From the UHGV virus genome UHGV-1383976: 64,000 nucleotides of DNA. One strand, given 5' to 3'. Source of the DNA: a virus. Both the position numbers and the translations under genes were made by a program. Positions 5,633 through 56,789 of this stretch are shown here, piece after piece (positions within the stretch are counted from its first letter, which is position 1; every line of letters begins with the position of its first letter). The notes under the pieces were generated by a model. The model saw nothing but the letters and a program-made list of their open reading frames with translations, had not been told where the DNA came from and did not search any database.

Positions 5633-6368
5633 AAGAAATCATTTTTCGGTTTGGCGCACACTGCCGGACAGCATAAGTCCCAATTCCTATCGCGTCAGCC
5701 TCATCTTCGCTAACGGAAACATCATACCATTGCTTTGCTAATAAACGCATAGAACTTTTTCGGTCACTCCTCGTGCGCCCTTTGACTCCGCACTCTTGGC
5801 GCCAAACCCCTGTATGGCATAAAGTGTAAGCAATTCCTAACTCAAAGCAACACTCAATCAAAATTCCCTGAAGCCACGCGAGTTGTTGAAATACATCAAC
5901 ACCCATCGTGCGCTTACCTTCACTTTCATTCTGAAGTTGAATGTTCTCTAAGGCCACTAAATCTGGCTGCCAATTATAAAGCATATTGACGAGCCAAACT
6001 TTTACAGCATTGCTGCGCGCAATTGTATCGGGCAATTGTGTTTGATAAGTTCCATATTTGATAAGCTCTTTGTCATCAAAAATTGAAAATCCGGTAATAT
6101 GTGTCGCTTGGTCGAGAGCGAGCACACGAAAAATATTTTTCTTTTTTGGAACAATTTTAGATGTTGCAGCCTCTGTTTTATATACATTAGCTTCACACGT
6201 CGGGCATATGCGTTTTGCACGAAGTTTTTTCCAAGGTGCAAATACGGCATGACCTTCGGGACATTCAAACCGCATTTCTGTTTCAAGATTGGTATATGTA
6301 TCGCTTACGACTTTCCAGCCGTCTTGCTCTAATTCTTCTCTAATTGAATCTAGCGAAATTTTTGCCAT
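5625..6368 (-). CDS. RuvC-like Holliday junction resolvase with N-terminal zinc-finger region
   Basis: The motif RVLALDQATHITGFSIFD resembles the RuvC N-terminal catalytic Asp motif. N-terminal CxxC...CPTC. Acidic residues lie downstream. Confidence 0.45.
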   Translation of the reverse strand: MAKISLDSIREELEQDGWKVVSDTYTNLETEMRFECPEGHAVFAPWKKLRAKRICPTCEANVYKTEAATSKIVPKKKNIFRVLALDQATHITGFSIFDDKELIKYGTYQTQLPDTIARSNAVKVWLVNMLYNWQPDLVALENIQLQNESEGKRTMGVDVFQQLAWLQGILIECCFELGIAYTLCHTGVWRQECGVKGRTRSDRKSSMRLLAKQWYDVSVSEDEADAIGIGTYAVRQCAPNRKMISWE

Positions 6369-7312
6369 TAGAACTTTCCAGTAGAACCGAAACCGCCCTG
6401 ACGGTCTTCCGCTCCATAAAGAGTTATATCATTTACTTCTTGCCAGCTTATTTTAGGAATTTCGGCAAGAACTAACTGGGCGATTTTTTGACCTTTTGTT
6501 ATGTAGACAGGTGAACCATGGAGAATTGATGTGATGATAGGGTGATGAGTTTCATTATCAAAATCATACGCTATGTCTTTGATCGCTGGCTCATTATTTT
6601 CGAGGATTATGCCAATCTCATCATGGAATCCTTCATCAACTGTGCCTATTCCATTCGCAACACGCATATGGGTGCGAGCTGACAGACCAGACTTTGCGCG
6701 CACTTGTATTTCATAGCCTTTTGGTAAAGCCACTCTCAAGCCCGTTGGAATTATTTTGATTTCGCCGGGGTCAATCGTATAATCGTCGAGTGCAAATACG
6801 TCAAGGCCACTGTCAGTTGTATGAGCATATTCAGGAAGTTTTACTTCATCAGACAATCGCTGTATAGGCACACTTACAACACGACGTGCAATTCGCTCAT
6901 TTTCACCAAGCGCATTTGCAACTATACCAAGAATGGATTTGAAGAAATCTATTTTGATTTGAGAAACTTTGCCATCCAAATTGGTTTGGAGTCTTTCTGC
7001 AATGTCGGCCAGTTCATCTATCATATCTTCAGCCGCGACACCTTGAATTGAAAGGTTCTGCGCAATACCAAGCTGAATCTGTGGGTCTTTGAAAGATGTG
7101 TAGAAATTCTCTAGTACATCTGCAGCAATTACCATAAATTTCTCATCATCAAGACTCATCAGACTCGAAAACGCTTTGACGTATTCATCAGCTTCATCAT
7201 CGTCAATCAGATTTCCAAAGAAGAAAGAAAAGGCTTCGCGCAAGGTCTGTTCGACGTCTATTTCTTCAGGCATTTCAATCGGCTGGCCTGAAATATCTAC
7301 TATATCACTCAT
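6368..7312 (-). CDS. dut: dUTP diphosphatase (trimeric dUTPase) with long N-terminal extension
   Basis: The C-terminal half carries dUTPase motifs (AKSGLSAR, GTVDEGFHDEIGIIL). About 170 aa of N-terminal sequence have unknown function. Confidence 0.7.
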   Translation of the reverse strand: MSDIVDISGQPIEMPEEIDVEQTLREAFSFFFGNLIDDDEADEYVKAFSSLMSLDDEKFMVIAADVLENFYTSFKDPQIQLGIAQNLSIQGVAAEDMIDELADIAERLQTNLDGKVSQIKIDFFKSILGIVANALGENERIARRVVSVPIQRLSDEVKLPEYAHTTDSGLDVFALDDYTIDPGEIKIIPTGLRVALPKGYEIQVRAKSGLSARTHMRVANGIGTVDEGFHDEIGIILENNEPAIKDIAYDFDNETHHPIITSILHGSPVYITKGQKIAQLVLAEIPKISWQEVNDITLYGAEDRQGGFGSTGKF

Positions 7313-44044: not shown

Positions 44045-44130
44045 GCGGGTGTGTCGGAATGGGTAGACGATATGGACTTAAAATCCATTGGCGGGATGCT
44101 GTACGGGTTCGAGTCCCGTCACCCGTACCA
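44045..44130 (+). tRNA. tRNA-Leu (anticodon TAA), type II
   Basis: Cloverleaf by eye. Anticodon stem atgga/tccat with loop cttaaaa, a long variable arm, T-loop gggttcgagtccc and encoded CCA. Confidence 0.75.
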
Positions 44131-44313
44131 AATGATAATAAGTAGTGCAGTGAATTCTTCCTAAGCCAATGTGTATGGTAGGCCAATCAAGATAATTAGG
44201 GTTAAGTATTCATGGGTCATGCACGGCTCTGCTTATTATCATTACCAACTGTCGTTCTCAATAGCGACTTAGAAGCAATTCTCAAAAAGTATCAAAAAGA
44301 AAGGAGAAAAGGG

Positions 44314-45216
44314 ATGTCATTTTTCGTAAGGACAGCAACTGATCGGTATGGGGATACAAATAGTTATCCTCGTTGGGGCAGAATAGTGGGATGCGCTATA
44401 GGAGCACTACTTGTTCTGATTATAATTCTCTCTTGTTTCACCAAAGTTCCTACTGGTAATACTGGTATCGTCACTACATTTGGTAAGGTTGAGAATTATA
44501 CGCTGGATTCAGGTTTTCATCTAAAGGCTCCATGGCAGAAGATAGTTAAGATGGATAATCGCGTTCAGAAGCAGAGTATTGATTTGATGTGTTTTTCTTC
44601 TGATATTCAGGAAGTATCTATGACTTATACAATTAACTTCCAGATTAGTAAGAGTGATGCAATGACGATTTATTCTACCATCGGAACTCATTATTATGAA
44701 ACCGTTATTATGCCTTGTATTACTGAGTCAGTTAAGACAGTTTGCGCACGATATACCGCTGAAGAGTTAGTGGGCATGAGAAGTGAACTTGCTTCAGCAA
44801 TAGAGGCAGATCTTTCTGAGAAGCTAATTAATTACAACATAGAGCTTGTTTCTACCTCTGTTGAGAACATGGATTTTACTGATGTCTTTACTGATGCTGT
44901 TGAAGCAAAGCAGGTTGCAGCACAGAATAAGCTCACTGCACAGACTCGTGCCGAGCAGGAAGTTATTGAAGCCGAAGCGGCGGCTAAGGTTCAGGTAATT
45001 CAGGCACAGGCTGATGCAGATGCCATGGTTGCTAAGGCCCAAGCCGAGGCAGAAGCAACTCGGATTCGTGCAGAAGCTGAAGCAGAAGCCAATGCAAAGG
45101 TCGCAGCGTCTCTAACAAATGCACTAATTGATTATACTTATGCGCAGCATTGGGATGGTAAGTATCCTACCTATTATGGTGGTAACGGTACAACTCCTGT
45201 TATCGATCTTAGATAA
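44314..45216 (+). CDS. SPFH/band-7 (prohibitin/HflK-like) domain protein with Ala/Glu-rich coiled-coil tail
   Basis: The listed ORF (44212) starts inside the tRNA spacer. The real start is the ATG at 44314 (RBS AAAGGAG). A TM segment is followed by the SPFH core (TGNTGIVTTFGKV...) and AEAEA repeats. Confidence 0.65.
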   Translation: MSFFVRTATDRYGDTNSYPRWGRIVGCAIGALLVLIIILSCFTKVPTGNTGIVTTFGKVENYTLDSGFHLKAPWQKIVKMDNRVQKQSIDLMCFSSDIQEVSMTYTINFQISKSDAMTIYSTIGTHYYETVIMPCITESVKTVCARYTAEELVGMRSELASAIEADLSEKLINYNIELVSTSVENMDFTDVFTDAVEAKQVAAQNKLTAQTRAEQEVIEAEAAAKVQVIQAQADADAMVAKAQAEAEATRIRAEAEAEANAKVAASLTNALIDYTYAQHWDGKYPTYYGGNGTTPVIDLR

Positions 45217-45254
45217 ATAAATGAGCTGGCATCTCAATAAACTGCCATTAATAT

Positions 45255-45330
45255 GCCCAGATAGCTCAGCAGGTAGAGCAGAGGATTGAAGATCCCCGTG
45301 TCGCTAGTTCGATTCTGGCTCTGGGCACCA
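45255..45330 (+). tRNA. tRNA-Phe (GAA)
   Basis: 76 nt with perfect acceptor gcccaga/tctgggc, anticodon loop ttGAAga, T-loop ttcgatt and CCA. Closely resembles the canonical bacterial tRNA-Phe (GAA) anticodon arm. Confidence 0.85.
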
Positions 45331-45501
45331 TTTGGGATTGTTTACTGTTTCTTGTTCCCTTAATTGCAAAAGTGCATGAGTAGCAATTAAAAAACATCTA
45401 AGCGGCGTGTATCGTTGGTCATTCGAGGGCTATGTCAAGGCTTAAAAGACCACAGTCGATTGGGGTTGGTAAACCTCCTGCGGGGAAGCTTCCATTATTA
45501 T

Positions 45502-45584
45502 GGGCGAGTGGTGGAACTGGTAGACACAGTAGCCTTAGGAGCTACCACTTCAGTGTAGGGGTTCGAGTCCCCTCCCGCCCACCA
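45502..45584 (+). tRNA. tRNA-Leu (TAG), type II
   Basis: Anticodon stem gtagc/gctac with loop ctTAGga, a long variable arm, T-loop ttcgagt and CCA. Confidence 0.75.
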
Positions 45585-45704
45585 TAAGTCTCCAAGAGGA
45601 TGGATTCCGGCTAAACTACCACCGGCGCACAATGTGTGATATGTGGCTTTGTCATTTGTGGAGACTATAATAAATAAAAACGAAAGTAAGCCGTTTTGAA
45701 ATAT

Positions 45705-45789
45705 GGGGGATTGGTGAAATAGGTAGACACGTGGCACTCAAAATGCTATGGCGAGAGCCGTATCAGTTCAAATCTGATATCCCCTACCA
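45705..45789 (+). tRNA. tRNA-Leu (CAA), type II
   Basis: Anticodon stem tggca/tgcta with loop ctCAAaa, long variable arm tggcgagagccgta, T-loop ttcaaat and CCA. Confidence 0.75.
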
Positions 45790-45812
45790 TTTACACAATA
45801 AAAGGAGATAAA

Positions 45813-46397
45813 ATGTCAAAGAATTTTTACATTAGTGACACCCATTTTGGACACGCTAACATTCTGAGATTTGATAGACGCCCATTCAATTCTGTTGAAG
45901 AAATGAACGCCGCGCTCATCAAGAATTGGAATGACGCAGTTGACCCGAATGACAATATTTACATACTGGGCGATTTTTGCTGGGGCAAGTCTGATGAATG
46001 GATTGATATTTTGTCTCAGCTCCAAGGCAACAAATATCTTATTGCAGGCAACCATGACTTGCGTAATCCTCCTTCTACTGTGCGGCGGTTCTTTCAGGAT
46101 TGGCGCGACTACAAAGAAATTTCTAACAACGATCGTAAGGTTATAATGTGTCATTATCCGATTCCATTTTACAAGTCAGATTACAACTCAAACACTTATA
46201 TGTTATTTGGTCATTTGCATACAACATTTGAGAATGAATATCTGGAAAATTTGCGATATCAAATAGAAAATGATCCTTATGAGCGGCCAGCCAAAAATCT
46301 TTGTCAGTTTTATAACGTCGGCTGTATGATGCCGTGGATGGACTATACACCGCGCACATTGGATGAAATTGTAGATGGATTTGCTAAGTTCCATTGA
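45813..46397 (+). CDS. Calcineurin-like metallophosphoesterase
   Basis: DTHFGH, GDF and GNHD motifs. 194 aa. RBS AAAGGAGA. Confidence 0.7.
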   Translation: MSKNFYISDTHFGHANILRFDRRPFNSVEEMNAALIKNWNDAVDPNDNIYILGDFCWGKSDEWIDILSQLQGNKYLIAGNHDLRNPPSTVRRFFQDWRDYKEISNNDRKVIMCHYPIPFYKSDYNSNTYMLFGHLHTTFENEYLENLRYQIENDPYERPAKNLCQFYNVGCMMPWMDYTPRTLDEIVDGFAKFH

Positions 46398-46409
46398 AGG
46401 GGAATAGGC

Positions 46410-46961
46410 ATGGCAGTAAATAAAGGATATTTAACAGCAAAAACAGATAAAGAGTCTGATGAAGTATATACACCAGCATATGCTGTTCGACCTTTGGTTA
46501 AGTATTTGCGATTTTTTGAAAAAATAAAGGGGCATCCAATAAAAATTTGGTGTCCTTTTGATACGCAAAGCTCGCAATATGTTCAAGTGTTTAGAGAAGC
46601 TGGTTTTGAGGTTATTCACTCTCATATTGAGGAAGGGAAAAATTTCTTTTTCTACGAACCCGATGAACGGTATGATATTATTATTTCGAATCCACCTTTT
46701 TCACAAAAGGACAATGTTTTGAAACGTTTGTTTGAGTTAAACAAGCCATATGCGATGTTATTGCCAATTCCAGCCTTGCAAGGGCAAAAGCGTTTCCCTT
46801 ATATAAAAGATGGACTACAATATCTTGGTTTTGATAAGAGAATTAATTATTATACTAATGCAGATTTTTCTCAAGTGCAAAAAGGGGTTTCTTTTGGTTC
46901 TTGTTATTTGTGTAAGCAATTTCTTCCAAGAGATTTAATTCTTGAAGAGTTGGAAGCGTAA
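46410..46961 (+). CDS. Phage Dam-like N6-adenine DNA methyltransferase (NPPF motif)
   Basis: DEVYTP followed by DIIISNPPFS. The small size (183 aa) is typical of phage Dam-family MTases. Confidence 0.55.
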   Translation: MAVNKGYLTAKTDKESDEVYTPAYAVRPLVKYLRFFEKIKGHPIKIWCPFDTQSSQYVQVFREAGFEVIHSHIEEGKNFFFYEPDERYDIIISNPPFSQKDNVLKRLFELNKPYAMLLPIPALQGQKRFPYIKDGLQYLGFDKRINYYTNADFSQVQKGVSFGSCYLCKQFLPRDLILEELEA

Positions 46962-46966
46962 AAAAT

Positions 46967-47054
46967 GCGGGATGAACTCAGACGGCTCTGAAACCGGTCT
47001 TGAAAACCGTGGGCAGGCAAAACCTGTGGGGATCGACACCTCCGTCCCGCGCCA
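46967..47054 (+). tRNA. tRNA-Ser (TGA), type II
   Basis: Acceptor gcgggat/gtcccgc, anticodon loop ctTGAaa (4 bp plus C-T at the stem top), a long variable arm and CCA. Confidence 0.65.
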
Positions 47055-47058
47055 ATAT

Positions 47059-47144
47059 GCGGAGTAAATTTAGAAGGTCTAAAGCTCCCCTGCTAAGGGA
47101 TGCGTGGTGAAAACCATGGGGTTCGCGTCCTCTGCTCCGCGCCA
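47059..47144 (+). tRNA. tRNA-Ser (GCT), type II
   Basis: Acceptor gcggagt/gctccgc, anticodon loop ctGCTaa, variable arm gtggtgaaaaccat and CCA. Same architecture as the neighbouring Ser tRNA. Confidence 0.65.
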
Positions 47145-47232
47145 GCCCCATCTTCAGTTCTATAGCTGGTGAAGATGGATAGGCGATGAAGTATAGCAAT
47201 AATATGGCATGAGAACTATGATAGTGTTTCAT

Positions 47233-47322
47233 GAGAGCGTAACTCAGTCGGTAGAGTTTTATAGCGTGAAGGGATATGCTATTGAATGCCCTTAGTCGCC
47301 AGTTCGAATCTGGCCGCTCTCA
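47233..47322 (+). tRNA. Aberrant tRNA-like gene (perfect acceptor, D and T arms; about 17 extra nt in the anticodon/variable region; no encoded CCA)
   Basis: Acceptor gagagcg/cgctctc, D-arm actcagtcggtagagt, T-arm gccagttcgaatctggc. The central 40 nt do not give a canonical 5-7-5 anticodon arm. A 5-bp atagc/gctat helix encloses a 12-nt loop. Confidence 0.4.
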
Positions 47323-47350
47323 TTAAAAATATATATGAAGAGGAATAGTT

Positions 47351-47605
47351 ATGGCAATTAATATCATTAGTAAAGGAATAGATTTAAATAATCCTACCTA
47401 TGAAACACAGTGTCCTCATTGTAAATGTGTGTTTACCTATCAAGATTCTGATACTACTCAAAAACCTACTGGTAGATATTATAAAGATTTTGAGGAGTAT
47501 TTCATTAAGATGGATGATTGCAATAGGAAAGAAATTGCTGTGTATATTGATTGCCCTTGGTGCCATGAAAGAAACCATGTGAAAGATAAATATGTAAAAA
47601 TATAA
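47351..47605 (+). CDS. Small zinc-ribbon protein
   Basis: 84 aa. CPHCKC...CPWCHE. RBS GAGGAA. Confidence 0.45.
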   Translation: MAINIISKGIDLNNPTYETQCPHCKCVFTYQDSDTTQKPTGRYYKDFEEYFIKMDDCNRKEIAVYIDCPWCHERNHVKDKYVKI

Positions 47606-47610
47606 TAAAT

Positions 47611-48153
47611 GGCTCAGTAGCTCAGAGGCAGAGCGTGCGGCTGTTTACTTGACCTTATCATTCTTTATGAAAAAGATAATGAATAGTAAGCAAAAAGGAA
47701 ACATTACAGAACTTGAAACAATGTTAGCATTTCTAAAACTTGGTTATAATGTTTTAACTCCATATGGAGATTGTGAGAGATATGACTTTGTTGTAGATGT
47801 TAATGGAAAATTTATTCGAGTTCAAGCTAAAACATCAAATACTGAAGATGATGGTGCATCATTTAAATTTTCTTGTAGAAGTTGCAATAGAAAAGATGGT
47901 AAAATTGTGCATCATATATATTTAAGCGAAGAAATTGATTACTTCGTAACTACTTTTAATGGAAAATGTTATTTAATTCCAGTTGAAGAGTGCGGAGCTG
48001 ATAAAAGACTTCGTATTCTTCCAACAAAAAATGGACAGGTAAGAGGTATTACTTGGGCAAAAGATTATGAATTGGAGGAAGTAGTAAAGAATTGGTAAGC
48101 TGATGTGTAAGCAACCGCAAGGTCGAGATATCGTAATTCTCCTGAGCCTCCAT
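47611..48153 (+). tRNA. tRNA (Asn GTT or Asp GTC) interrupted in the anticodon loop by an insertion of about 467 nt that carries a PD-(D/E)XK endonuclease ORF
   Basis: The 5' half is 47611-47645: ggctcag-ta-gctc-agaggca-gagc-g-tgcgg-ctgtt. The 3' half is 48113-48153: aa-ccgca-aggtc-gagat-atcgtaa-ttctc-ctgagcc-t-cca. The acceptor pairs 7/7, the D-stem 4/4 and the anticodon stem tgcgg/ccgca 5/5, with CCA encoded. Confidence 0.55.
47649..48098 (+). CDS. Small PD-(D/E)XK nuclease-like protein inside the interrupted tRNA (homing endonuclease candidate)
   Basis: ERYDFVVDVNGKFIRVQAKT is a D...(E/Q)xK signature. Paralog of 49599..49958. The start may be the internal Met at 47667. Confidence 0.5.
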   Translation: MTLSFFMKKIMNSKQKGNITELETMLAFLKLGYNVLTPYGDCERYDFVVDVNGKFIRVQAKTSNTEDDGASFKFSCRSCNRKDGKIVHHIYLSEEIDYFVTTFNGKCYLIPVEECGADKRLRILPTKNGQVRGITWAKDYELEEVVKNW

Positions 48154-48158
48154 ATTAT

Positions 48159-48234
48159 GCGCCATTAGCTCAGTTGGTAGAGCATGGCACTTTTAATGCT
48201 GGGGTCTGCGGTTCAAGTCCGCAATGGCGCACCA
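48159..48234 (+). tRNA. tRNA-Lys (TTT)
   Basis: Perfect acceptor gcgccat/atggcgc, anticodon loop ctTTTaa, T-loop ttcaagt and CCA. Confidence 0.8.
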
Positions 48235-48254
48235 TAAATTTTGGAGGAAGTAAA

Positions 48255-48515
48255 ATGAAGCTGACAGAGAAAGGGACAATTGTATTTGCCGCTGCGTTAG
48301 AGCATTGTCCCAATGAACCTTTTACAGCGGCCAGTTTATCAACAAAGTGTGGCCTTCCTATTTCTGCAGCTACACTCAATGGTATCACCAATCAGGGACT
48401 TATGACTCGACTTGGCGGTTCGCCCGTTAAGTTTGAGTTAGTTTCTAACGCGAAAGACTTGTATAACAAGGCGCGCGAAGGCAAATCGGCGAATGAAAAT
48501 TTAAATAAAGCGTAG
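48255..48515 (+). CDS. Small putative DNA-binding protein (MKLTEK paralog 2)
   Basis: The listed ORF 48174.. begins inside tRNA-Lys. The real start is the ATG at 48255 with RBS GGAGGAAG. Paralog of 26606..26860. Confidence 0.45.
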   Translation: MKLTEKGTIVFAAALEHCPNEPFTAASLSTKCGLPISAATLNGITNQGLMTRLGGSPVKFELVSNAKDLYNKAREGKSANENLNKA

Positions 48516-48581
48516 GTTGCGAAAAATGATGAGTTTTATACTCAATATCAAGACATTGAAAAAGAGATTCTGCAGTATGAC

Positions 48582-49358
48582 TTGCGTGGTAAAAAGGTTT
48601 TATGTAATTGTAATGATGGTTTGACAAGTGAGTTCTTAAATTATTTTGTCAATAATTTTGATTGTCTTGAACTTGATGAACTTGTTTGTTTGACTTATAA
48701 TAAAGATGGAAAGGCATATAAGTATACCAAGCGTCCTAAAGTTGACCTTATGGTTGAACCACTCATCGGTTCTGGTGCATTTGATTCACAGGAAGGCCGA
48801 GATGCTCTTGCCGCTTGTGATATTGTTATAACAAATCCTCCCTTTAGTCAATTTCGAGATTTTGTCAATTTGATTTTGTCTTACAAAAAAGATTTTTTGA
48901 TAATTGGCAGTAAAAATGCTATTACCTACAAAGAATTTTTTCCACTTTTAATGAGTGGTAAAGTTCATATTGGCAATTTCAATGTTTCTACTTTTAAACA
49001 GCCAGATGGTACTGATAAAAAATTTGGTAATATCGGTTGGTTTACGACTCTTTCTGTTGTAAAAGCGGCACAACCAATTCCTTTAACAGCAACCTATGAT
49101 CCGCAAAATTATCCTACTTATGATAACTTCCGTGCAATTGAAGTAAGTCGCACAGCTAATATTCCTAAGGACTATGATGGCGTAATGGGGGTTCCTATTT
49201 CATTTCTGGACAAATTTTGTCCTACTCAATTTAAAATTGTTGGATGGAGTCGTCATAATGACGAAGGAATGGATGGCGGATACTGGACGGGTGGTTGTGC
49301 TGATGCTACTATAAATGGTAAGCAAGTTTATCGCAGAATTTTGATTCAGAAAATTTGA
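48582..49358 (+). CDS. Second N6-adenine DNA methyltransferase-like protein (NPPF motif)
   Basis: CDIVITNPPFSQFRDF. 258 aa. Paralogous catalytic motif to the CDS at 46410..46961. Confidence 0.5.
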   Translation: MRGKKVLCNCNDGLTSEFLNYFVNNFDCLELDELVCLTYNKDGKAYKYTKRPKVDLMVEPLIGSGAFDSQEGRDALAACDIVITNPPFSQFRDFVNLILSYKKDFLIIGSKNAITYKEFFPLLMSGKVHIGNFNVSTFKQPDGTDKKFGNIGWFTTLSVVKAAQPIPLTATYDPQNYPTYDNFRAIEVSRTANIPKDYDGVMGVPISFLDKFCPTQFKIVGWSRHNDEGMDGGYWTGGCADATINGKQVYRRILIQKI

Positions 49359-49383
49359 TTTTTATTAAAATTTTCGATATAAT
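49355..49383 (+). promoter_or_regulatory. Consensus phage promoter with duplicated leader
   Basis: TTGATT at 49355-49360, N17, TATAAT at 49378-49383, then ATATATATAGAAAGTTGAGAGAGA, identical to the leader at 43389-43412. Confidence 0.55.
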
Positions 49384-49598
49384 ATATATAGAAAGTTGAG
49401 AGAGAAACTTCCAGAGGTTGCGAATTAGCTATTCAATACAAAATCTCTCAAAATGATAAGGTTTTCGGTGTTTTACTTATCGGTTTTCTATGCAAAATGG
49501 TTCTAACAAGCCAGCGTGCGCGCGAGTAAAAGTTGTTAATAAGCGGTTGGCATACGTGATAAGCCGTTGCCCCAGCGAGAAGATTTAATAAATCTTCT

Positions 49599-49958
49599 TT
49601 GTTGGTGGTGTTTAATAAAAATGCGTCAGTAGCAACCCAGTGGTATGATTTGATTATAGAAAAAGATGATAAATTTGAAACAGTACAATGTAAGTGTACT
49701 GGTTCTCAGAACAACGTCATTAGTCTAAAGTCTTGTGGCGGTACAAAAGGTGAAGCTTATGACAATGTTCTTAATCATTCTGGGCTTGATAAATTATTTT
49801 GCGTGGATATAAATGGTAATATGTACGTGATCCCGATGTCAGAGGTTGTGGCATCTGGAAATACTAAGCAAATTACTTTACGTACTGAACCCACAGCAAA
49901 TAATCAAGGTTTTCAAACTCATAAATTTCGAGTTCAATTCTCGTTTCAAGCGTCGTAA
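49599..49958 (+). CDS. PD-(D/E)XK nuclease-like paralog (TTG start, long 5' leader)
   Basis: Shares YDxxxxxxxKFxxVQxK...SxKSC and a C-terminal (M/C)Y(L/V)IP(V/M)xE with the CDS at 47649..48098. No clear RBS. Confidence 0.35.
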   Translation: MLVVFNKNASVATQWYDLIIEKDDKFETVQCKCTGSQNNVISLKSCGGTKGEAYDNVLNHSGLDKLFCVDINGNMYVIPMSEVVASGNTKQITLRTEPTANNQGFQTHKFRVQFSFQAS

Positions 49959-50009
49959 ACCCGTTTCCTTCGAGAGTAACTGGATCGACACCAGTCTGAC
50001 GCACCATTT

Positions 50010-50083
50010 CGGGAATGTGGTGTAATGGTAGCACACTTGATTTGGGGTCAAGGAGAGTGGTTCGAATCCAACATTTCCGACCA
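50010..50083 (+). tRNA. tRNA-Pro (TGG)
   Basis: C1-G72 acceptor cgggaat/atttccg, anticodon stem cttga/tcaag with loop ttTGGgg, T-loop ttcgaat and CCA. Confidence 0.7.
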
Positions 50084-50087
50084 AGAT

Positions 50088-50174
50088 GCTGAGTTCCCAT
50101 AGTGGTCGATTGGAGCGGTCTTGTAAGCCGCAGACTTCGTGTCCGCATCAGTTCGAATCTGATACTCAGCTCCA
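50088..50174 (+). tRNA. Type II tRNA with ambiguous anticodon (TGT by canonical parse; Tyr-like architecture)
   Basis: Acceptor gctgagt/actcagc, 3-bp D-stem, anticodon stem gcggt/gccgc with loop cttgtaa, a 15-nt variable arm, T-arm atcagttcgaatctgat and CCA. Confidence 0.55.
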
Positions 50175-50178
50175 CTAT

Positions 50179-50254
50179 AAGGGAGTAGCCCAATAGGTAA
50201 GGCAGCAGTCTCCAAAACTGAAGATTAAAGGTTCGAGTCCTTTCTCTCTTGCCA
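50179..50254 (+). tRNA. tRNA-Trp (CCA)
   Basis: Acceptor aagggag/ctctctt, anticodon loop ctCCAaa, T-arm aaaggttcgagtccttt and CCA. Confidence 0.7.
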
Positions 50255-50287
50255 ATAATTTCATTTTTCAAATTTCCTTTCTTAAAA

Positions 50288-50317
50288 TTTGACTTTTTCA
50301 AAAAATCTTGATATAAT
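50288..50317 (+). promoter_or_regulatory. Consensus phage promoter in front of the GC-rich ORF-free region
   Basis: AAAATTTGACTTTTT, TTGACT at 50288-50293, N18, TATAAT at 50312-50317. Confidence 0.55.
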
Positions 50318-50324
50318 ATATACA

Positions 50325-51060
50325 TAAGATAAAGAAAAGAAAAAGTCAAAAGGAGGACAATGCTAGTGCCACCTACACGTGGTGTCCTCTGTTTTCGCTA
50401 AGAGCGCTGGCATATATCCAATTAAATAATACTAACTCAGTGAAGACGGAATTCGATGTTCCGGCTGAGAAATTCCAGCTAGCACAGCAGAAACGAAACA
50501 AGGATACTTGTGGATACTGGACTGAGAGGCCATCGAGAGATGAGCCGAAGTAGAGCGGTCGCTCAAGTGGGAAGAAGAGCAGGAATTGTGCTGAGTGAAT
50601 CGCAAGCAAACGCAGCCGTGGAGTGGCGAGCGCAATAGACAGCTTGGTGAATAGCCAAGCCGAACCCAAGTTAGGTCTTAGTTGGTGCCTGTGGCAATCC
50701 TTGGGAAAACCAATAAGCTCGTTCCGTTGAGACGACAGGGAATGTGAAATCTGTCTTTGACACTCTACAGCATCCGAGTAGCGGAACACAACGGGGACTT
50801 ATAGAAAAGATGGTCAGTAATAATAGAAATTGCTATTTTATCTTTCTGAACATCCCGTGAAAGGTAGAGGTAATCAACCCTCTGGCGGATTAGGCGACAT
50901 TAGACACTTGGGCTATCCAAGAGTAACAAGTCAATGTTGTTGCTGGGGTAAGAAGTGTATGGGCGACGGCCTGTATGCTCAGACTTATCTCCCGCGTGGC
51001 AGAATATGCTTGAAGGTTTATCGAGGTAGGGCGAAGGCCCAGTAATATTTAGTTGGATTT
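50325..51060 (+). ncRNA. Candidate large structured non-coding RNA (about 0.7 kb, GC-rich, no credible ORF)
   Basis: Local GC is well above the roughly 36% background. Only short mutually overlapping ORFs occur on both strands, none with an RBS. The region is preceded by a consensus promoter, contains many stable local hairpins and is flanked by tRNA-Trp and tRNA-Met. Confidence 0.4.
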
Positions 51061-51064
51061 ATAT

Positions 51065-51137
51065 GGCAGGACGAGAAGGTTCTCCATTTGGCCTCATAAG
51101 CCAGATTTCGTGGGTTCGATTCCCACTCCTGCATCCA
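51065..51137 (+). tRNA. tRNA-Met or tRNA-Ile2 (CAT), short D-arm
   Basis: Anticodon stem ttggc/gccag with loop ctCATaa, T-arm gtgggttcgattcccac and CCA. G1-A72 mismatch and a compact D-arm. Confidence 0.55.
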
Positions 51138-51140
51138 TAT

Positions 51141-51215
51141 GTCGTATTGGTGTTAGTGGCAGCACGATAGCCTTCCAAGCTATATGGAGGAGTTCGAGTC
51201 TCCTATACGACTCCA
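51141..51215 (+). tRNA. tRNA-Gly (TCC)
   Basis: Acceptor gtcgtat/atacgac, anticodon stem atagc/gctat with loop ctTCCaa, T-arm aggagttcgagtctcct and CCA. Confidence 0.7.
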
Positions 51216-51361
51216 TTTTAGAAATGTCTTGAACGACAGGAGGTTTTGCTTATGGATATAACAAAATCTAATGAGGACTGCGGTCCAACGAACAGGACAA
51301 AGAGTTGGGCCTCTCTATAAAAAGGCCCTCGTAAGAAAATTTGGAAAGGAAGTAAAGTAAA

Positions 51362-51775
51362 ATGAAGTATTATAGTGATGTTCTTCATACGCTGTTTGAT
51401 ACTCAGGATGCGCTTGAGGAAGCCGAAGCGAAGAAAACCGCGGCAGATGCTGAGAAAGTACATGCAAAAGAAACGGCTAGAAAACGTAGAGAAGAAGATA
51501 AAGAACGTTTCCTTGAGTTGAGAAAGAAGTTCAATAAGATCAGCACTGAGTATGACAAGACATCTAAAGAGTATATGGACTATGCTGATAAGATGATGCA
51601 GGAGTATTCATTAGATGCTGTGCTGGATTGGCTTTCTGATGCTTTTCTTTATGATTGTGCCACAGCTAAGACGAAAGCAGATGCATCATCTACCACAACT
51701 GCTACCACGAAAACTGCGCGGGAGCCTGAAAACTTGGGAGAAATTCTTGCCCGTATTTTTGAGGATATGCGCTGA
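51362..51775 (+). CDS. Hypothetical coiled-coil protein
   Basis: 137 aa, Lys/Glu/Ala-rich. RBS AAAGGAAG. Confidence 0.45.
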   Translation: MKYYSDVLHTLFDTQDALEEAEAKKTAADAEKVHAKETARKRREEDKERFLELRKKFNKISTEYDKTSKEYMDYADKMMQEYSLDAVLDWLSDAFLYDCATAKTKADASSTTTATTKTAREPENLGEILARIFEDMR

Positions 51776-51779
51776 GAAT

Positions 51780-52340
51780 TTTGAATAAATTGGCGCGATT
51801 GATTATCAAATCGTCCCACGGAGTTGAAGCTAAAACGTTAGCGGTGAATATGGCCATTCCCGCAAGCTCGGCGGTTTGTTAGGCAACCGCGCGGATGTAA
51901 ATTATTGATAGGAAACTTTGGTTTAATTTACTCACTGAAGTTCTCCAAAAGTCGAACTAGAGCCTAAACTGAGTTCGCAGTGCTGAGGCCGGCATACGCT
52001 CGGAGAGGATGCGTTATTGAGCTAATTGGATTAGTGTCAATGTGAGGCAACGGTGGCCAACTCTTAGAGAGCCACGCGACAGAGTTATGCTAAAAGGCAA
52101 TGCCCAGTATCGGTGCCACTAGGGTTGATAGACAAGTAGTAAAAGTCAGGTGAAGACAATACCGGCTGACATAATTGGGACGTAGTCATAGGCGTAGGCC
52201 GTGCCAAAACTAAAAATCAAAGTGTGCGGCACACGAAACCCAAGTCAGATGCGGGCGATTGAAACGGCGCCCTCAACCCATATAAGGTTTTACAAGAGAT
52301 TTTCCTTGTGTTAGACTAAAAAATCTCTTTTTTGTATAAA
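51780..52340 (+). ncRNA. Second candidate large structured non-coding RNA (about 0.55 kb, GC-rich, completely free of ORFs of 60 aa or more)
   Basis: No ORF is listed on either strand across 51776-52525. GC is elevated. The region ends in an intrinsic terminator (52296-52340) just before tRNA-Gln. Confidence 0.4.
52296..52340 (+). terminator. Rho-independent terminator at the end of the ORF-free region
   Basis: Hairpin aagagatttt...aaaatctctt followed by TTTTTTG. Confidence 0.55.
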
Positions 52341-52343
52341 TTT

Positions 52344-52418
52344 AGAGGTATAGTGTAATTGGCAACACATCGGCCTTTGACGCCGTATTTATAGGTTCGA
52401 GTCCTGTTACCTCTGCCA
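52344..52418 (+). tRNA. tRNA-Gln (TTG)
   Basis: Acceptor agaggta/tacctct, anticodon loop ctTTGac, T-arm ataggttcgagtcctgt and CCA. Confidence 0.65.
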
Positions 52419-52525
52419 ACAGTTCCACATTAGAAAAACCTAATGTGGACTTTTTTATATATATCAGCTACAAAAAATCTACTTAGAAATGCGGGCAACC
52501 GCAAAACACATCAAAGGAGGAGCCT

Positions 52526-53149
52526 ATGGAAGAATTAGGTCTGTTTTTGGGTTTGGGAGATGATGCTAACTATCAGCTTGCTAATCCAAGCCTGTTAGCG
52601 TATTACAAAGAACTCAATGAGCGTCGTCTCTGGCTCGATTGCGAGGTAGATGATGAAGCGATAGGTGATATGTGCCGCCAGATTATTCGCTGGAATAAGG
52701 AGGATGACGCAATAGAACCTTCGAAGAGGAAAAAGATTATTATCTATTTTGTCAGCCCCGGTGGCAGTTTAGACAGCTATCTATGGCTCAAAGACGTAAT
52801 AAATCTGAGTATTACTCCGATAGTTGGTATTATGATGAGCCGCACAGCTAGCGCGGCTGCTCTGATATATCTTCATTGCCACGAACGCTATGCTCTTGAG
52901 AGTTCAAAAATCTTGTTCCATTATGGTTCGATTTCTCTCGCACAAGACGCCGCAAATGCGATTGAGGCGGTAAAAAATTATGAGCAGGAAATCAAAAAGT
53001 TTGTTGACGTAATTCGTGAGCACTCTGACTTTTCAGATGATTATATTCGTGATAAGTTGGTCAAGGATTGGGAACTTACGGCTGACGAAGCTCTCGAACA
53101 TGGCATTGTTCAAAAAATAATAAGCGATATCAGCGAACTCTGGAACTAA
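52526..53149 (+). CDS. ClpP-family serine protease (possible prohead protease)
   Basis: VSPGGSLDS and MMSRTASAAALIY match the ClpP active-site Ser region. RBS AAAGGAGGAG. Confidence 0.6.
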   Translation: MEELGLFLGLGDDANYQLANPSLLAYYKELNERRLWLDCEVDDEAIGDMCRQIIRWNKEDDAIEPSKRKKIIIYFVSPGGSLDSYLWLKDVINLSITPIVGIMMSRTASAAALIYLHCHERYALESSKILFHYGSISLAQDAANAIEAVKNYEQEIKKFVDVIREHSDFSDDYIRDKLVKDWELTADEALEHGIVQKIISDISELWN

Positions 53150-53160
53150 GGAGGTTTGTT

Positions 53161-53481
53161 ATGGATAAATATACTGGCTATTATGAGTGGCATCCATCAG
53201 AACAAGGACTTGAGGATTTTTATTCTGGCCTTTTTACACCTGCAGGGATGGGCTTGGTTGAAAACCAGTATTTGATTATCTATGACTCCGAAGATAAGGT
53301 TATAGATAAATATTTTTGTAAGAACAATGAATTTGAAAAGGTTCATTATATGGCGCTTCAAAGCGATTACTGTGGGGTTATCAAACCACGCAATGTATAT
53401 CAGGAATTGGCTATTCATTCCCTTATGGATAGACGTGTTCCCGTAAAAGTTTTGGGTGGCGTCTTTGGCTCGGGTAAATAA
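53161..53481 (+). CDS. PhoH-like ATPase, exon 1 (ends inside the Walker A motif)
   Basis: Ends ...AIHSLMDRRVPVKVLGGVFGSGK followed by a stop. GxxGSGK is a P-loop truncated just before the expected T/S. The remainder of PhoH is encoded by 54409..54942. Confidence 0.6.
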   Translation: MDKYTGYYEWHPSEQGLEDFYSGLFTPAGMGLVENQYLIIYDSEDKVIDKYFCKNNEFEKVHYMALQSDYCGVIKPRNVYQELAIHSLMDRRVPVKVLGGVFGSGK

Positions 53482-54411
53482 CTTGCCCCTTCTTAGGGCG
53501 ACCTAAGAATGAAAATCGCGTGAATTGCTGGAAGCCTAAGCCGCAAGGTATGGTAATCAGCAGCCAAGCCGTTTTAGCAACGGAAGGTTCAACGACTATC
53601 CCGGCAGGGAGTAGGGAGCAATCCCGAAGCGCGCGACAACTTTTGTTTTGTTTTTATTTTAATAAAGGAGGTGAGGTTATAAATAAGTGGACAGATGAAC
53701 AAAAAGCAGAAATTATTGATGATTATACCAAAAAAGGTATGACTTTGGCAGAGATTGGAAAAAAATTTCATTCTAAAGGAGATACAATTAGTAAATATCT
53801 AAAGTCTTGGGATATTCCCATCAATCGTAGAAAGAAAAATCGGCTTATGAATGAAAAGTTTTTTTCTATAATTGACTCAGCTGAAAAGAGTTATTTTCTG
53901 GGCTTGTTATTCGCTGATGGTTCAGTTGTTTTAAATAGCGAGCGGGCGCCATATGTTTCTTTAGAATTAGTAGAAAAGGACAAAGAAATATTAGAAATTT
54001 TCCGTTCATTATTAAATTGTCAAAATGACTTATACTACAATAAGCGAGATAATCGGAAGAATGGAACATATACTTTTGGAGTAAGAAGTCAATTACTAGC
54101 TGATGATTTAGCTAAATTTAATATCATTCCAAATAAAACTTATGAAACAACCCAAGTAATTTTCCCAGAAAATTTTCTTATTGATTTTCTAAGAGGGTAT
54201 ATTGATGGCGATGGCTCTATTTATCAAAATGTTTATAAGGCCGTTTGGAATGGACAAGATGCTAAACGAATTATAAACATTCTCTATTTAAAGAACGATG
54301 GCATTGCGCTCTCTCGAAAACGAGAACGAGCTAAGTTAGCTCAACAAAACAAAAGTTGATGATATAGTCTAATCCCTTTTTAAAAATATCGGGAAACCGA
54401 GGGTATAAATG
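53476..54411 (+). mobile_element. Group I intron (IA-like) in the phoH-like gene, carrying a LAGLIDADG homing endonuclease ORF
   Basis: Q-like AATCAGCAGCC (53555-53565), R-like GGTTCAACGACTATCCC (53586-53602) and S-like TGATGATATAGTCTAATCC (54357-54376). R/S give a GACTAT/ATAGTC P7 pairing. Proposed splice sites are after U53475 and after G54411, giving an in-frame junction GSG/KDLL. Confidence 0.6.
53520..54359 (+). CDS. LAGLIDADG homing endonuclease (double-motif)
   Basis: Two LAGLIDADG motifs, LGLLFADGSV and LRGYIDGDGSI. The true start is uncertain because the upstream part of the listed ORF overlaps conserved intron elements. The likely start is near 53680, after AAAGGAGG. Confidence 0.75.
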   Translation: MNCWKPKPQGMVISSQAVLATEGSTTIPAGSREQSRSARQLLFCFYFNKGGEVINKWTDEQKAEIIDDYTKKGMTLAEIGKKFHSKGDTISKYLKSWDIPINRRKKNRLMNEKFFSIIDSAEKSYFLGLLFADGSVVLNSERAPYVSLELVEKDKEILEIFRSLLNCQNDLYYNKRDNRKNGTYTFGVRSQLLADDLAKFNIIPNKTYETTQVIFPENFLIDFLRGYIDGDGSIYQNVYKAVWNGQDAKRIINILYLKNDGIALSRKRERAKLAQQNKS

Positions 54412-54942
54412 AAGGATCTTCTAATGAGCGGGGCTTGTTTTAGCTTTATCGAAAAAGGTATTTTTGAAAAACTTGTTTATATACGCCCCAATATCACGCT
54501 TGAAGGAGTGCCTGATATTGGCTACCTCAAAGGCGGAATGGACGAAAAGCTTGAATGGACTTTAGCTCCATTATGGGATAAGTTCGGTGGCCGCGAAGCT
54601 ACTCAAAATCTTGTTGCTTCTGGCAAGATTGAGCTTGTAGCCTTACCTTTTATCAAAGGTCGCAGTTTTGAAAACAGCATTATTTATGTCAGTGAAGGCC
54701 AGAACATTACTCGTAAAGTCGCTGGCAATATTATTAGTCGCGCTGGTGAGGGCACTGAAATTTGGATAAATGGCGACTATCACAGTCAGACCGATCGCAG
54801 AATGTTTGAGGTTGATAATGGTATGCGTGCGATGGAGGAAACCCTGAAAGGCAATGCGCTCTATGAAACTATTTATCTTCCTATTACAGAGCGTTCTGCT
54901 GTAGCTCAACTTGCTGGAATTGTTTGTAACACTGAAAATTGA
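54409..54942 (+). CDS. PhoH-like ATPase, exon 2
   Basis: IELVALPFIKGRSFENSIIYVSEGQNIT and GEGTEIWINGDYHSQTD resemble PhoH Walker B and downstream motifs. Confidence 0.6.
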   Translation: MKDLLMSGACFSFIEKGIFEKLVYIRPNITLEGVPDIGYLKGGMDEKLEWTLAPLWDKFGGREATQNLVASGKIELVALPFIKGRSFENSIIYVSEGQNITRKVAGNIISRAGEGTEIWINGDYHSQTDRRMFEVDNGMRAMEETLKGNALYETIYLPITERSAVAQLAGIVCNTEN

Positions 54943-55043: not shown

Positions 55044-55074
55044 TATCGTGAGGGGCAATCGCCCCTCTTTTTTT
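55044..55074 (+). terminator. Rho-independent terminator
   Basis: Hairpin gaggggcaatcgcccctc followed by TTTTTTT. Confidence 0.6.
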
Positions 55075-55097: not shown

Positions 55098-56789
55098 ATG
55101 GGAACGGTTTATAATGATGTATTACATACTTATTCGCCTTACGGCCCGAATAATTATATGCCGCGCACAGGTCGCTACAAATTTAACCAGCGGCACAATT
55201 ATGAGAACAATATAAAAGCTTTGCGAGAAAAAGAGAATACTTTTTATAGCGCCATACTAGGGACAACGGTTTCTTCTTTTGGAGAATTTGTGCGGCAAGT
55301 CAAAGAAAAACTGTCAAAATTTCAGCAAGATACAAATGCTTTGCGGCAATTAGATAACGATAGGCTTACTCAAGCGCTTTACCGTAAATATGGTTTTTCT
55401 ACAAAAGGGCAATGGGATCAAGACGCTACTTTTTCTCGTCTTGTCGTTAAATTGGACGCTTCTGTTGCTGAGAACACCTTGAATACTTATATTAAAGAGA
55501 TAGAAAAAACTGTTATTGCTGAACTCCAAAAGATAGGCCAAGTTGGGAAGGCTGATTTAAAGCTATCAGTTAGTGGCAATTTGAAGGCTGGCACACTTAC
55601 TATAGATTTTGGTCTTGACAAGGGCGCAATTGAGAAAAAACTAGACGAAACTGGCTTGCTAAAAGGTGTTGTCAATGCCGCAATGGGTCGTAAGTTGAAA
55701 GTCGAAGCACAAAGTCTTGAATGGTTTAAAAACCAAATTTTGAATGATCCAAATTTGATAAGCTTGACAACTAATAAAAAAGAATTTGTTTGGGAAGCTA
55801 ATTCAAAACTTAGGACAAAAGATAGAGAAGGCAATGCGAATCCTTTTGCGATAAGTAAAAAAGGCTTAGCAAAAAAGAATATTAGTCAACAGCAACAAAT
55901 TGAGGAAGAAATCAAATCTTTTATAATGGCTACAATTGGCTATGGTCAGACATCGCAAGATTTTCAAAATGTTTTTCAAGAAGCTTGGCGCACACAAATC
56001 TCTAGCCGGAAATTAGGTATTGCAGGATATACTTGGAATGGTGCAATAGCTAATATAGTTGGCGCTTTTGGTGAGTTTCAAACTTATGTTTTATTCCAAT
56101 ACATCTCACATTTGTTTGGGGGAAAAGCGCAAGGTAAAATAGCTGACGCTTTTGCTAGTGGCGAACAAATGAAAGCCGATATCCAGTTTTTCCAAGGGTT
56201 TGGCATCCAAGTAAAAAATTATTCTGGCTATGGTTCTGAACTAAAGGAACTTAAATTTAATATTCATCCAAATAAACTTATTCAATATCCGCAAATCAGC
56301 GAATGGATTGGTTCAAGTTTTTCAGAATATATTGCAAATTACTACTTCAATAAAGATATCAATCGCACGCCATTTGCGAGCATTATTGATGGACTAAAGC
56401 GAGCTTTTGCTGAAATAGCTTCAATGGGAACAACAGATGATGTGCCTGACACCGTTTGTCTTTATAATTTAGGTGGTGGTTATCTAATTCCAGCGTCAGA
56501 TTTACTTGAGCAAGTTTATTTACGGTCTTATCGCTTAGACGATACTCAAGTTGCGATTACATCCGCTTTTGAAGGCTCTACAAATAAAGAGTTTCATAAA
56601 AAGAAAAAAGGAAAGGATGGAAAACAACAAGAGCCAACTTTTTTGAAATACTGGGAAAGAGATGGAGAAAGCTGGAAGCCAAAAGATGAAAACAGAAACC
56701 TCTACGCACAAATGCTCAATTCAAAAATTTCAATCCGCGCGGTAGTTCCTTATGAACAATTTCTCCGTGAGGGTTATAAATTATGGTGA
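55098..56789 (+). CDS. Hypothetical large protein (virion or baseplate candidate)
   Basis: 563 aa with RBS AAAGGAGGG. First gene of the late block that ends in tail fibres. Confidence 0.45.
   Translation: MGTVYNDVLHTYSPYGPNNYMPRTGRYKFNQRHNYENNIKALREKENTFYSAILGTTVSSFGEFVRQVKEKLSKFQQDTNALRQLDNDRLTQALYRKYGFSTKGQWDQDATFSRLVVKLDASVAENTLNTYIKEIEKTVIAELQKIGQVGKADLKLSVSGNLKAGTLTIDFGLDKGAIEKKLDETGLLKGVVNAAMGRKLKVEAQSLEWFKNQILNDPNLISLTTNKKEFVWEANSKLRTKDREGNANPFAISKKGLAKKNISQQQQIEEEIKSFIMATIGYGQTSQDFQNVFQEAWRTQISSRKLGIAGYTWNGAIANIVGAFGEFQTYVLFQYISHLFGGKAQGKIADAFASGEQMKADIQFFQGFGIQVKNYSGYGSELKELKFNIHPNKLIQYPQISEWIGSSFSEYIANYYFNKDINRTPFASIIDGLKRAFAEIASMGTTDDVPDTVCLYNLGGGYLIPASDLLEQVYLRSYRLDDTQVAITSAFEGSTNKEFHKKKKGKDGKQQEPTFLKYWERDGESWKPKDENRNLYAQMLNSKISIRAVVPYEQFLREGYKLW

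Follow-up and report, generated by a model that had tools for sequence, protein, structure and literature searches.

A group I intron predicted in the phoH gene of an uncultured phage, with a probable remnant of a LAGLIDADG endonuclease gene

The phage group I introns of subgroup IA2, such as those in the td, nrdB and nrdD/sunY genes of T4, in bnrdE and bnrdF of SPbeta, and in the DNA polymerase genes of Felix-O1-like and T7-like phages, have a common core in which the helices P7.1 and P7.2 lie between P7 and the 3′ strand of P3. The element analyzed here, a 936-nt insertion in a PhoH-like ATPase gene of UHGV virus genome UHGV-1383976 (the 64,000-nt stretch that was analyzed is referred to below as the window), has the same core and further resembles these introns in the U at position -1, the terminal G, the in-frame stop codon just inside the intron, the open reading frame (ORF) with its own Shine-Dalgarno sequence in a peripheral loop, and the insertion into strongly conserved codons of a gene for an enzyme. 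Over its bases 45-125, the element is about 80% identical to introns annotated in the DNA polymerase genes of phages of Salmonella and E. coli (Felix-O1-like phages). It differs from the phage IA2 introns in its host gene, phoH, and in the family of its endonuclease, LAGLIDADG. Phage introns mostly encode endonucleases of the GIY-YIG, HNH, PD-(D/E)xK or EDxHD families (2014 review, PMC3984707), and phage LAGLIDADG genes are found mostly in inteins (2023 survey, PMC10448857).

Our literature search found no published report of a phoH intron. The type of element and its mechanism are already well known; it is the host gene and the pairing with a LAGLIDADG protein that are unusual. An earlier note on this DNA, made without database searches, had proposed a PhoH gene interrupted inside its Walker A motif by a group I intron with a LAGLIDADG endonuclease, and had named a covariance model search and an alignment with intron-less phoH genes as checks. 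From the sequence comparisons described below, we consider it highly probable that phoH carries a splicing group I intron, the endonuclease gene of which is a nuclease-dead remnant.

The intron and the phoH exons

The element that splits phoH is a group I intron that occupies positions 53476-54411 of the window; the intron, the exons and all elements placed within them lie on the + strand. The Rfam model RF00028 (gathering score 50 bits) matches the window with 66.7 bits (E = 1e-14) over 53466-53741, far more than chance would give. The first of the two checks is thus borne out, the more so as the gathering score is also exceeded in four other alleles at the same site, namely L006 (70 bits), L007 (62 bits), L136 (68.8 bits) and L135, a 232-nt allele without an ORF that covers the whole model (85.7 bits, E = 5.6e-21); the intron-less loci L001 and L134 yielded zero matches. 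The 3′ half of the window match (53640-53741) enters the ORF and is misaligned, and we rejected it as a true alignment; the actual 3′ strands of P8 and P7 and the P9 elements were placed at 54343-54411. A second, sub-threshold match that appears in a permissive scan (54178-54391) corresponds to the 3′ part of the intron beyond the ORF. The Q, R and S boxes that the earlier note had recognized are present, AATCAGCAGCC at 53555, GGTTCAACGACTATCCC at 53586 and GATATAGTCTAATCC at 54361, and R and S can indeed form P7, through the pairing of GACUA with UAGUC. No second intron was detected in the window by the Rfam scan at E <= 0.05.

Two distant phages, L131 (ENA ERZ919312 scaffold_31) and L132 (ENA ERZ920292 scaffold_500), carry introns of 1083 and 1146 nt, respectively, at the same phoH codon. 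These were assigned to group I by helix-by-helix reading, checked by hand and by script; automatic detection of P8 chose spurious matches in both, and manually drawn, script-verified strands were used instead. That RF00028 misses the two introns indicates that the model is weakly sensitive to introns that bear an ORF.

Exon 1 (53161-53475, codons 1-105, ending in GVFGSG) and exon 2 (54412-54942, codons 106-281, stop codon at 54940-54942) align without gaps to positions 6001-6315 and 6316-6846 of the uninterrupted gene in L001. At 846 nt, the spliced coding sequence (53161-53475 joined to 54412-54942) has the same length as the uninterrupted gene, from which it differs by 46 mismatches, and a search with the joined exons retrieved an uninterrupted relative of 281 aa with 99% protein identity (P0001). 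All six intron-less alleles (L001-L005 and L134) reside in the same context, between clpP and a gene for a 563-aa protein, and all align gap-free with the spliced sequence. The insertion falls within the Walker A motif, between the codons of G105 (GGU, ending at U53475) and K106 (AAG, from 54412). By sequence, the boundaries could slide by 0 to +2 nt; they were set at 53475/54411 because only position 0 combines a U at -1 with a terminal G. The second check therefore fixes the exon boundaries, and these agree exactly with the splice sites proposed in the earlier note, after U53475 and after G54411, with the in-frame junction GSG-KDLLMSGA, as judged by the intron-less alleles of syntenic sister phages. 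The predicted ligated junction (53475/54412) joins GGCUCGGGU to AAGGAUCUU; the empty site in L001 (about 6285-6345) contains TTTGGTTCAGGTAAAGATCTTCTAATG.

The two PhoH ORFs listed in the earlier note are both there, although their ends have to be read differently. The ORF at 53161-53481 does end in VLGGVFGSGK followed by TAA, but the P-loop is not simply cut one residue early: the terminal K is encoded by the intron's opening triplet, AAA, and the Walker lysine by the AAG of exon 2. The ORF at 54409-54942 carries the rest of PhoH (Pfam PhoH, E = 1.3e-22, profile positions 40-186 of 205), including the Walker B-like IIYVSEGQN, which aligns to the Walker B motif ILDEAQN of PDB 3b85; its ATG (54409-54411), however, consists of the last bases of the intron and is not a start codon. 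This end of the intron, GAGGGUAUAAAUG (54399-54411), resembles a Shine-Dalgarno sequence followed by an ATG in frame with exon 2, so that gene callers begin a 177-aa "PhoH" ORF within the intron; the resemblance is seen in L131 as well, but not in L132.

The spliced protein matches the PhoH-like ATPases, both the Pfam profile (PF02562, E = 1.1e-27, 97.3 bits with a cut-off of 27, profile positions 2-186) and PDB 3b85 (E = 5e-11, residues 73-252), but differs from them in its motifs. Where the canonical motifs read GxxxxGK[ST] for Walker A and hhhhDE for Walker B, it has GVFGSGKD (residues 100-107; 53461-53478 with 54412-54417) and IIYVSE. The GSGKD in place of GSGKT and the YVSEGQN (residues 196-202; 54682-54702) in place of ILDEAQN are shared throughout the phage PhoH family, with the swaps of Thr to Asp and Asp to Ser at the two Mg-coordinating positions kept in homologs down to 48% identity. 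The junction GSG-KD fits this family, K106 being invariant and D107 nearly invariant among 18 homologs.

Between the window and an intron-less allele, phoH shows 41 synonymous and 3 non-synonymous codon differences, with no stops or frameshifts, and every lineage that bears the intron has kept its exons intact, even where PhoH is only about 50% identical. The clpP-phoH transcription unit is bracketed by a terminator-like hairpin upstream (52424-52449) and an intrinsic-terminator-like hairpin followed by a T-run that ends the unit (55050-55067, + strand); the same scan found no such hairpin inside the intron on the + strand. The conservation of the exons and this layout of terminators argue for removal of the intron from the mRNA.

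A split gene can also persist as a gene in pieces, as in the case of NrdA of Aeromonas phage Aeh1 (PMC10448857). Applied to phoH, this would mean that a free-standing endonuclease gene split the host gene and that the two halves, the second one translated from ATG 54409, are made separately and reassemble. The ATG at the end of the insert, with the Shine-Dalgarno-like GAGGG located 5 nt upstream, and the similar arrangement in L131 would suit such a scheme. However, GAGGG is the 3′ strand of P9, the ATG is missing at this place in L132, and the split would part the G from the K of the P-loop; moreover, the group I core of the insert is complete and scores above the Rfam cut-off, and L135, which has no endonuclease gene, shares the boundaries. 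We regard a gene in pieces as extremely improbable.

Predicted structure of the ribozyme

The helices of the intron were read from the sequence, with their complementarity verified by a script, and the minimum free energy fold of a construct without the ORF recovers the helices of the catalytic core (53516-53636). In P1 (53472-53488), the exon bases GGGU and the intron bases AA (53472-53477) pair with the guide UUGCCC (53483-53488), and the in-frame stop codon UAA (53479-53481) lies in the loop. The U at -1 forms a wobble pair with the internal guide (U53475-G53485) and the intron ends in G54411, as is expected of a group I intron. P10 pairs CUU (53482-53484) with the AAG of exon 2 (54412-54414).

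For analysis of covariation, the window intron, with the ORF deleted, and 47 ORF-less relatives were aligned using MAFFT without structure information. Standard pairs occupy 75.1% of the alignment cells, whereas controls with the partners shifted by 1-3 columns reach 30-43%; for the covariation score, the values are 0.335 and 0.06-0.12, respectively, and none of 500 shuffles attained 0.335. Every pair of P2, P3, P6a, P7.1, P7.2 and P8 changed on both sides: the P2 hairpin UUCUUAGG-GCGA-CCUAAGAA (53490-53509) at 8 of 8 pairs; P3 (53516-53520 with 53632-53636) with compensatory changes at 5 of 5; P6a, within P6/P6a (53563-53588), at 4 of 4; and P7.1 (UCCC-GGCA-GGGA, 53599-53610) and P7.2 (GGGA-GCAA-UCCC, 53614-53625) at 4 of 4 each. 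P8 (53637-54358) is a 16-bp stem, formed by CAACUUUUGUUUUGUU (53637-53652) and AACAAAACAAAAGUUG (54343-54358), that closes the ORF-bearing loop; its nine basal pairs all changed on both sides among the relatives, and in L135 this stem closes a short loop. P4 (53526-53531 with 53557-53562), P6 and P7 (GACUA 53594-53598 with UAGUC 54365-54369) are invariant, which is partly a selection effect given that the relatives were picked by their Q, R and S patterns. The remaining helices are P5, with a GCAA loop (53534-53554), and P9, in which CCCU (54374-54377) pairs with AGGG (54400-54403) around the hairpin CGG-GAAA-CCG (54390-54399). The 3′ tail of the intron, UAUAAAUG (within 54365-54411), ends in the terminal G54411. 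The Q...R core pattern was found in at least 120 IMG/VR contigs.

Because P7.1 and P7.2 lie between the 5′ strand of P7 and the 3′ strand of P3, the intron belongs to subgroup IA; from its overall layout, which is like that of the phage IA2 introns, it is probably IA2-like.

The diverged phoH introns and the exons provide additional evidence on the helices that are formed near the splice sites. All helices are complementary yet differ in sequence across the window, L131 and L132; for example, P1 of L132 is the compensatory UGCGGU/GCCGCG, P10 of L131 is UCUUU:AAAGA, and the P9 hairpin co-varies, with GGU/ACC in L131, CAG/CUG in L132 and GUC/GAC in L123. P1, P10 and the P9 hairpin are thus backed by their complementarity in two diverged introns at the same codon, and P5, too, co-varies among the phoH introns. 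At exon positions -4 and +3, which take part in P1 and P10, all intron-bearing alleles have G and all intron-less ones A, both changes being synonymous. Among the close alleles, 17 of the 20 variable core positions are unpaired and three are paired, with one change disrupting a pair (binomial P = 0.005).

From these features, we infer splicing, cleavage and homing of the phoH intron along the following lines. The clpP-phoH transcript would fold into P1-P9, and a free guanosine held at P7 would attack after U53475, which P1 presents in its wobble with the guide UUGCCC. With P10 (CUU:AAG) aligning exon 2, the freed 3′-OH of exon 1 would then attack behind the terminal G54411, and GGU would be joined to AAG, yielding ...GVFGSG-KDLLMSGA... 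and a PhoH protein of 281 aa. On unspliced RNA, ribosomes would halt at the UAA two codons inside the intron. In co-infection, the intact endonuclease of a sister phage would presumably cut the empty phoH site, and repair would copy the intron in; the window copy, with 120 bp lost, would still splice but could not home by itself.

The endonuclease gene

The ORF in the P8 loop (53679-54359, 226 codons) encodes a deletion derivative of a protein with a helix-turn-helix (HTH) and LAGLIDADG motifs (Pfam LAGLIDADG_3, E = 6e-9, 36.4 bits with a cut-off of 22.5). It is preceded by a directly readable Shine-Dalgarno sequence, AAAGGAGGUGA (53664-53674), that is kept in L006, L007 and L131, and its stop codon UGA (54357-54359) falls inside the 3′ strand of P8. 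The earlier note was right about a two-motif LAGLIDADG ORF between R and S (LGLLFADGS, 53898-53924, and LRGYIDGDGS, 54189-54218) but missed its place in the P8 loop, its ATA start and a deletion of 120 bp. The catalytic aspartates of the two motifs, D80 and D178, respectively, do not vary among 50 homologs. Metagenomes contain more than 200 homologs, which are 265-280 aa long, and all of those for which the context was checked lie in phoH introns; P0134 and P0144 (about 47% identical) are likewise encoded within phoH split at the same codon, in L131 and L132.

The start codon of the window ORF is ATA (53679), 7 nt after GGAGG; no ATG, GTG or TTG is available at a proper Shine-Dalgarno distance. 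L007 has ATG at this place, and L006 shares the ATA. The ORFs of the window and L006 differ by 16 synonymous and 3 non-synonymous changes. Because selection on the ORF remained purifying once ATG had become ATA, the ATA is not in itself evidence of decay, and we dropped it as such a sign; more likely, it serves as a start codon, though a weak one.

Downstream of the second LAGLIDADG motif, about 40 residues that all relatives have, YQDAQGWHLNITGHSKSVISQFQEQLDKLIEKTKPNAITC, are missing from the window ORF. According to the DNA alignment, the 120 bp between two direct TATCAA repeats in L006, L007 and L136 are absent from the window, where a single TATCAA marks the junction (54222-54227), and the deletion is in frame. 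Two independent assemblies, L009 and L010, contain the identical deleted intron, so the deletion is not an assembly artefact.

The consequences for the protein were assessed with structural models. The AlphaFold model of a full-length relative, P0123 (pLDDT 94.4), has a three-helix HTH at the N terminus and two LAGLIDADG domains, both complete and with four strands each; its best PDB matches by Foldseek are I-Tsp061I, I-AniI, the bI3 maturase, the I-OnuI family, I-SceI and WhiA. A search of PDB by sequence only, with the endonuclease as the query, was not significant (E 0.06). With the LAGLIDADG proteins among these matches (Foldseek E 7e-9 to 1e-6), P0123 shares the predicted two alpha-beta-beta-alpha-beta-beta-alpha domains and the LAGLIDADG helices that both end in a conserved aspartate; it differs from the solved structures in the extra N-terminal HTH, and the identity is only 12-21%. 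In the window copy, the deletion takes out the end of strand 1, strand 2, helix 2 and strand 3 of domain 2, and the model of the window protein retains domain 1, whereas domain 2 is left without strands, with a low-confidence coil at residues 177-191. The window copy thus has one complete LAGLIDADG domain where P0123 has two, and, unlike the solved endonucleases, it is without the sheet of domain 2. On these models, it very probably cannot bind and cut the target, and the endonuclease gene is most likely a nuclease-dead remnant.

Several observations weigh against a splicing intron with a dead endonuclease gene. The deletion is in frame and keeps both catalytic aspartates, so residual activity or another role is conceivable, and the ORF shows purifying selection after the ATG-to-ATA change, which deprives the ATA of value as evidence of decay. 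P5 and P9 are unsupported in the alignment with the 47 distant relatives, and RF00028 gave no match to the introns of L131 and L132 even at E <= 0.01. Finally, splicing is itself a prediction, and given that the endonuclease gene is decaying, so could be the whole element.

The truncated protein might, accordingly, be functional, as a maturase, a WhiA-like DNA-binding regulator or a dimeric nuclease that acts through the intact domain 1. The deleted ORF is free of stops, with HTH, domain 1 and both aspartates in place; the structural matches include maturases (bI3, I-AniI) and WhiA; and the deleted allele occurs in at least three independent assemblies. The 16 to 3 ratio of synonymous to non-synonymous differences from L006 points the same way, but this signal may stem wholly from changes on the L006 branch and from changes that predate the deletion, and chance alone would leave one in three deletions between 6-bp repeats in frame. 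Furthermore, all four strands of the DNA-binding sheet of domain 2 are gone, and no intron-encoded protein appears to be needed because L135, without the ORF, keeps intact exons and a near-intact core. We therefore consider a functional truncated protein unlikely, and we are similarly doubtful that, after loss of the nuclease, a protein consisting of the HTH, one LAGLIDADG domain and a second helix was domesticated as a maturase of its own intron or a WhiA-like regulator.

If the decay extended to the entire element, the ribozyme would be dead, phoH would be a pseudogene, and the element would be a decaying insertion kept in the mRNA. Yet the core helices of the window are all undisrupted, the variation among alleles avoids paired positions, the exons combine the 41 to 3 pattern of codon differences with the lack of stops and frameshifts, the exons carry the bases by which P1 and P10 are strengthened, and an identical intron recurs in several samples. 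This makes a dead ribozyme very unlikely, and we continue to favor a splicing intron with a nuclease-dead endonuclease gene.

Allele series and genomic setting

At the phoH site, closely related phages present six states: an empty site (L001-L005 and L134); an intron with an intact ORF starting from ATG (L007 and L008); an intact ORF with the ATA start (L006, 1061 nt); an ORF frameshifted by a change from A6 to A5, possibly a sequencing error (L136, 1059 nt); the 40-aa in-frame deletion (the window, L009 and L010, 936 nt); and an ORF-less intron of 232 nt (L135). The intron of L135 has the same boundaries as that of the window, and its removal leaves an intact 846-nt coding sequence; its ribozyme core is 95-96% identical to those of the ORF-bearing alleles, with one helix-disrupting change. 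In the model of Goddard and Burt, homing reportedly proceeds as a cycle in which invasion is followed by fixation, decay of the endonuclease and loss. The likeness of the phoH site to this cycle consists in the six states found in close phages; the states match a textbook passage from invasion through endonuclease decay to loss of the ORF, in an order that we infer, with a precise return to the empty site as a hypothetical step. Among the best 80 PhoH-family loci in IMG/VR, the site is interrupted only in the two closest to the window.

The identity of the intron between alleles, 97.6%, compared with 91-96.6% for the flanks, had suggested recent horizontal transfer as a candidate explanation, but the gap is too small for such a conclusion. 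Exon 1 of phoH (53161-53475) is 91% identical to that of L006 and 86% to that of L007; clpP (52526-53149), at 96% and 94%, respectively, and the gene for the 563-aa protein (55098-56789), at 96.6%, are less diverged. Exon 1, adjacent to the homing site, may be a hotspot of recombination or co-conversion. A separate IMG/VR contig, L128, has at least three Q...R group I cores within about 4 kb (at 1313, 3636 and 4977), which suggests a multi-intron gene or gene cluster.

The phage is uncultured and known only from metagenomes, with sister contigs of about 129 kb, and megablast against deposited phages returned no nucleotide-level match for the region. It encodes a PolC/DnaE-like polymerase (38% identical to YorL of SPbeta), NrdD, topoisomerase II and a DnaB-like helicase. 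The gene directly upstream of phoH, in the same transcription unit, encodes a ClpP-like protease (52526-53149, + strand; Pfam CLP_protease, E = 3.2e-18); it is kept upstream in all alleles, the order being clpP, phoH and the 563-aa gene. A promoter scan found 11 sites, with 8.4 expected, and is thus not above chance. Upstream of the unit, 12 tRNA genes (44045-52418, + strand: three Leu, two Phe, and one each of Lys, Pro, Thr, Trp, Met, Gly and Gln) form an array that includes a full-length ROOL RNA (50412-51059, + strand; RF03087, 271.8 bits), also present in L001, L006, L007, L134 and L135, with tRNA-Met (51060-51137) abutting its 3′ end. A 92-nt "tRNA-Phe" (47232-47323) was called by ARAGORN only, and a tRNA-Sec-like match (46966-47051) scores 41.2 bits, under the Rfam cut-off of 47. 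Two large conserved ORFs are without a Pfam or PHROG match, the one for the 563-aa protein directly downstream of phoH (55098-56789, + strand) and one of 955 aa (24-2891, + strand).

With this locus, phoH is added to the known host genes of phage group I introns, and the HTH-LAGLIDADG family becomes linked to phage introns, where GIY-YIG and HNH endonucleases are considered typical. One species-level phage population offers a natural series of homing-cycle alleles, including a minimal ribozyme of 232 nt. In annotation, the ORFs called here (106, 269-279 and 172-177 aa) are to be merged into a spliced 281-aa PhoH and one endonuclease pseudogene. Because phoH is a common phage marker gene, amplicon or gene-calling surveys would miss or truncate genes split in this manner.

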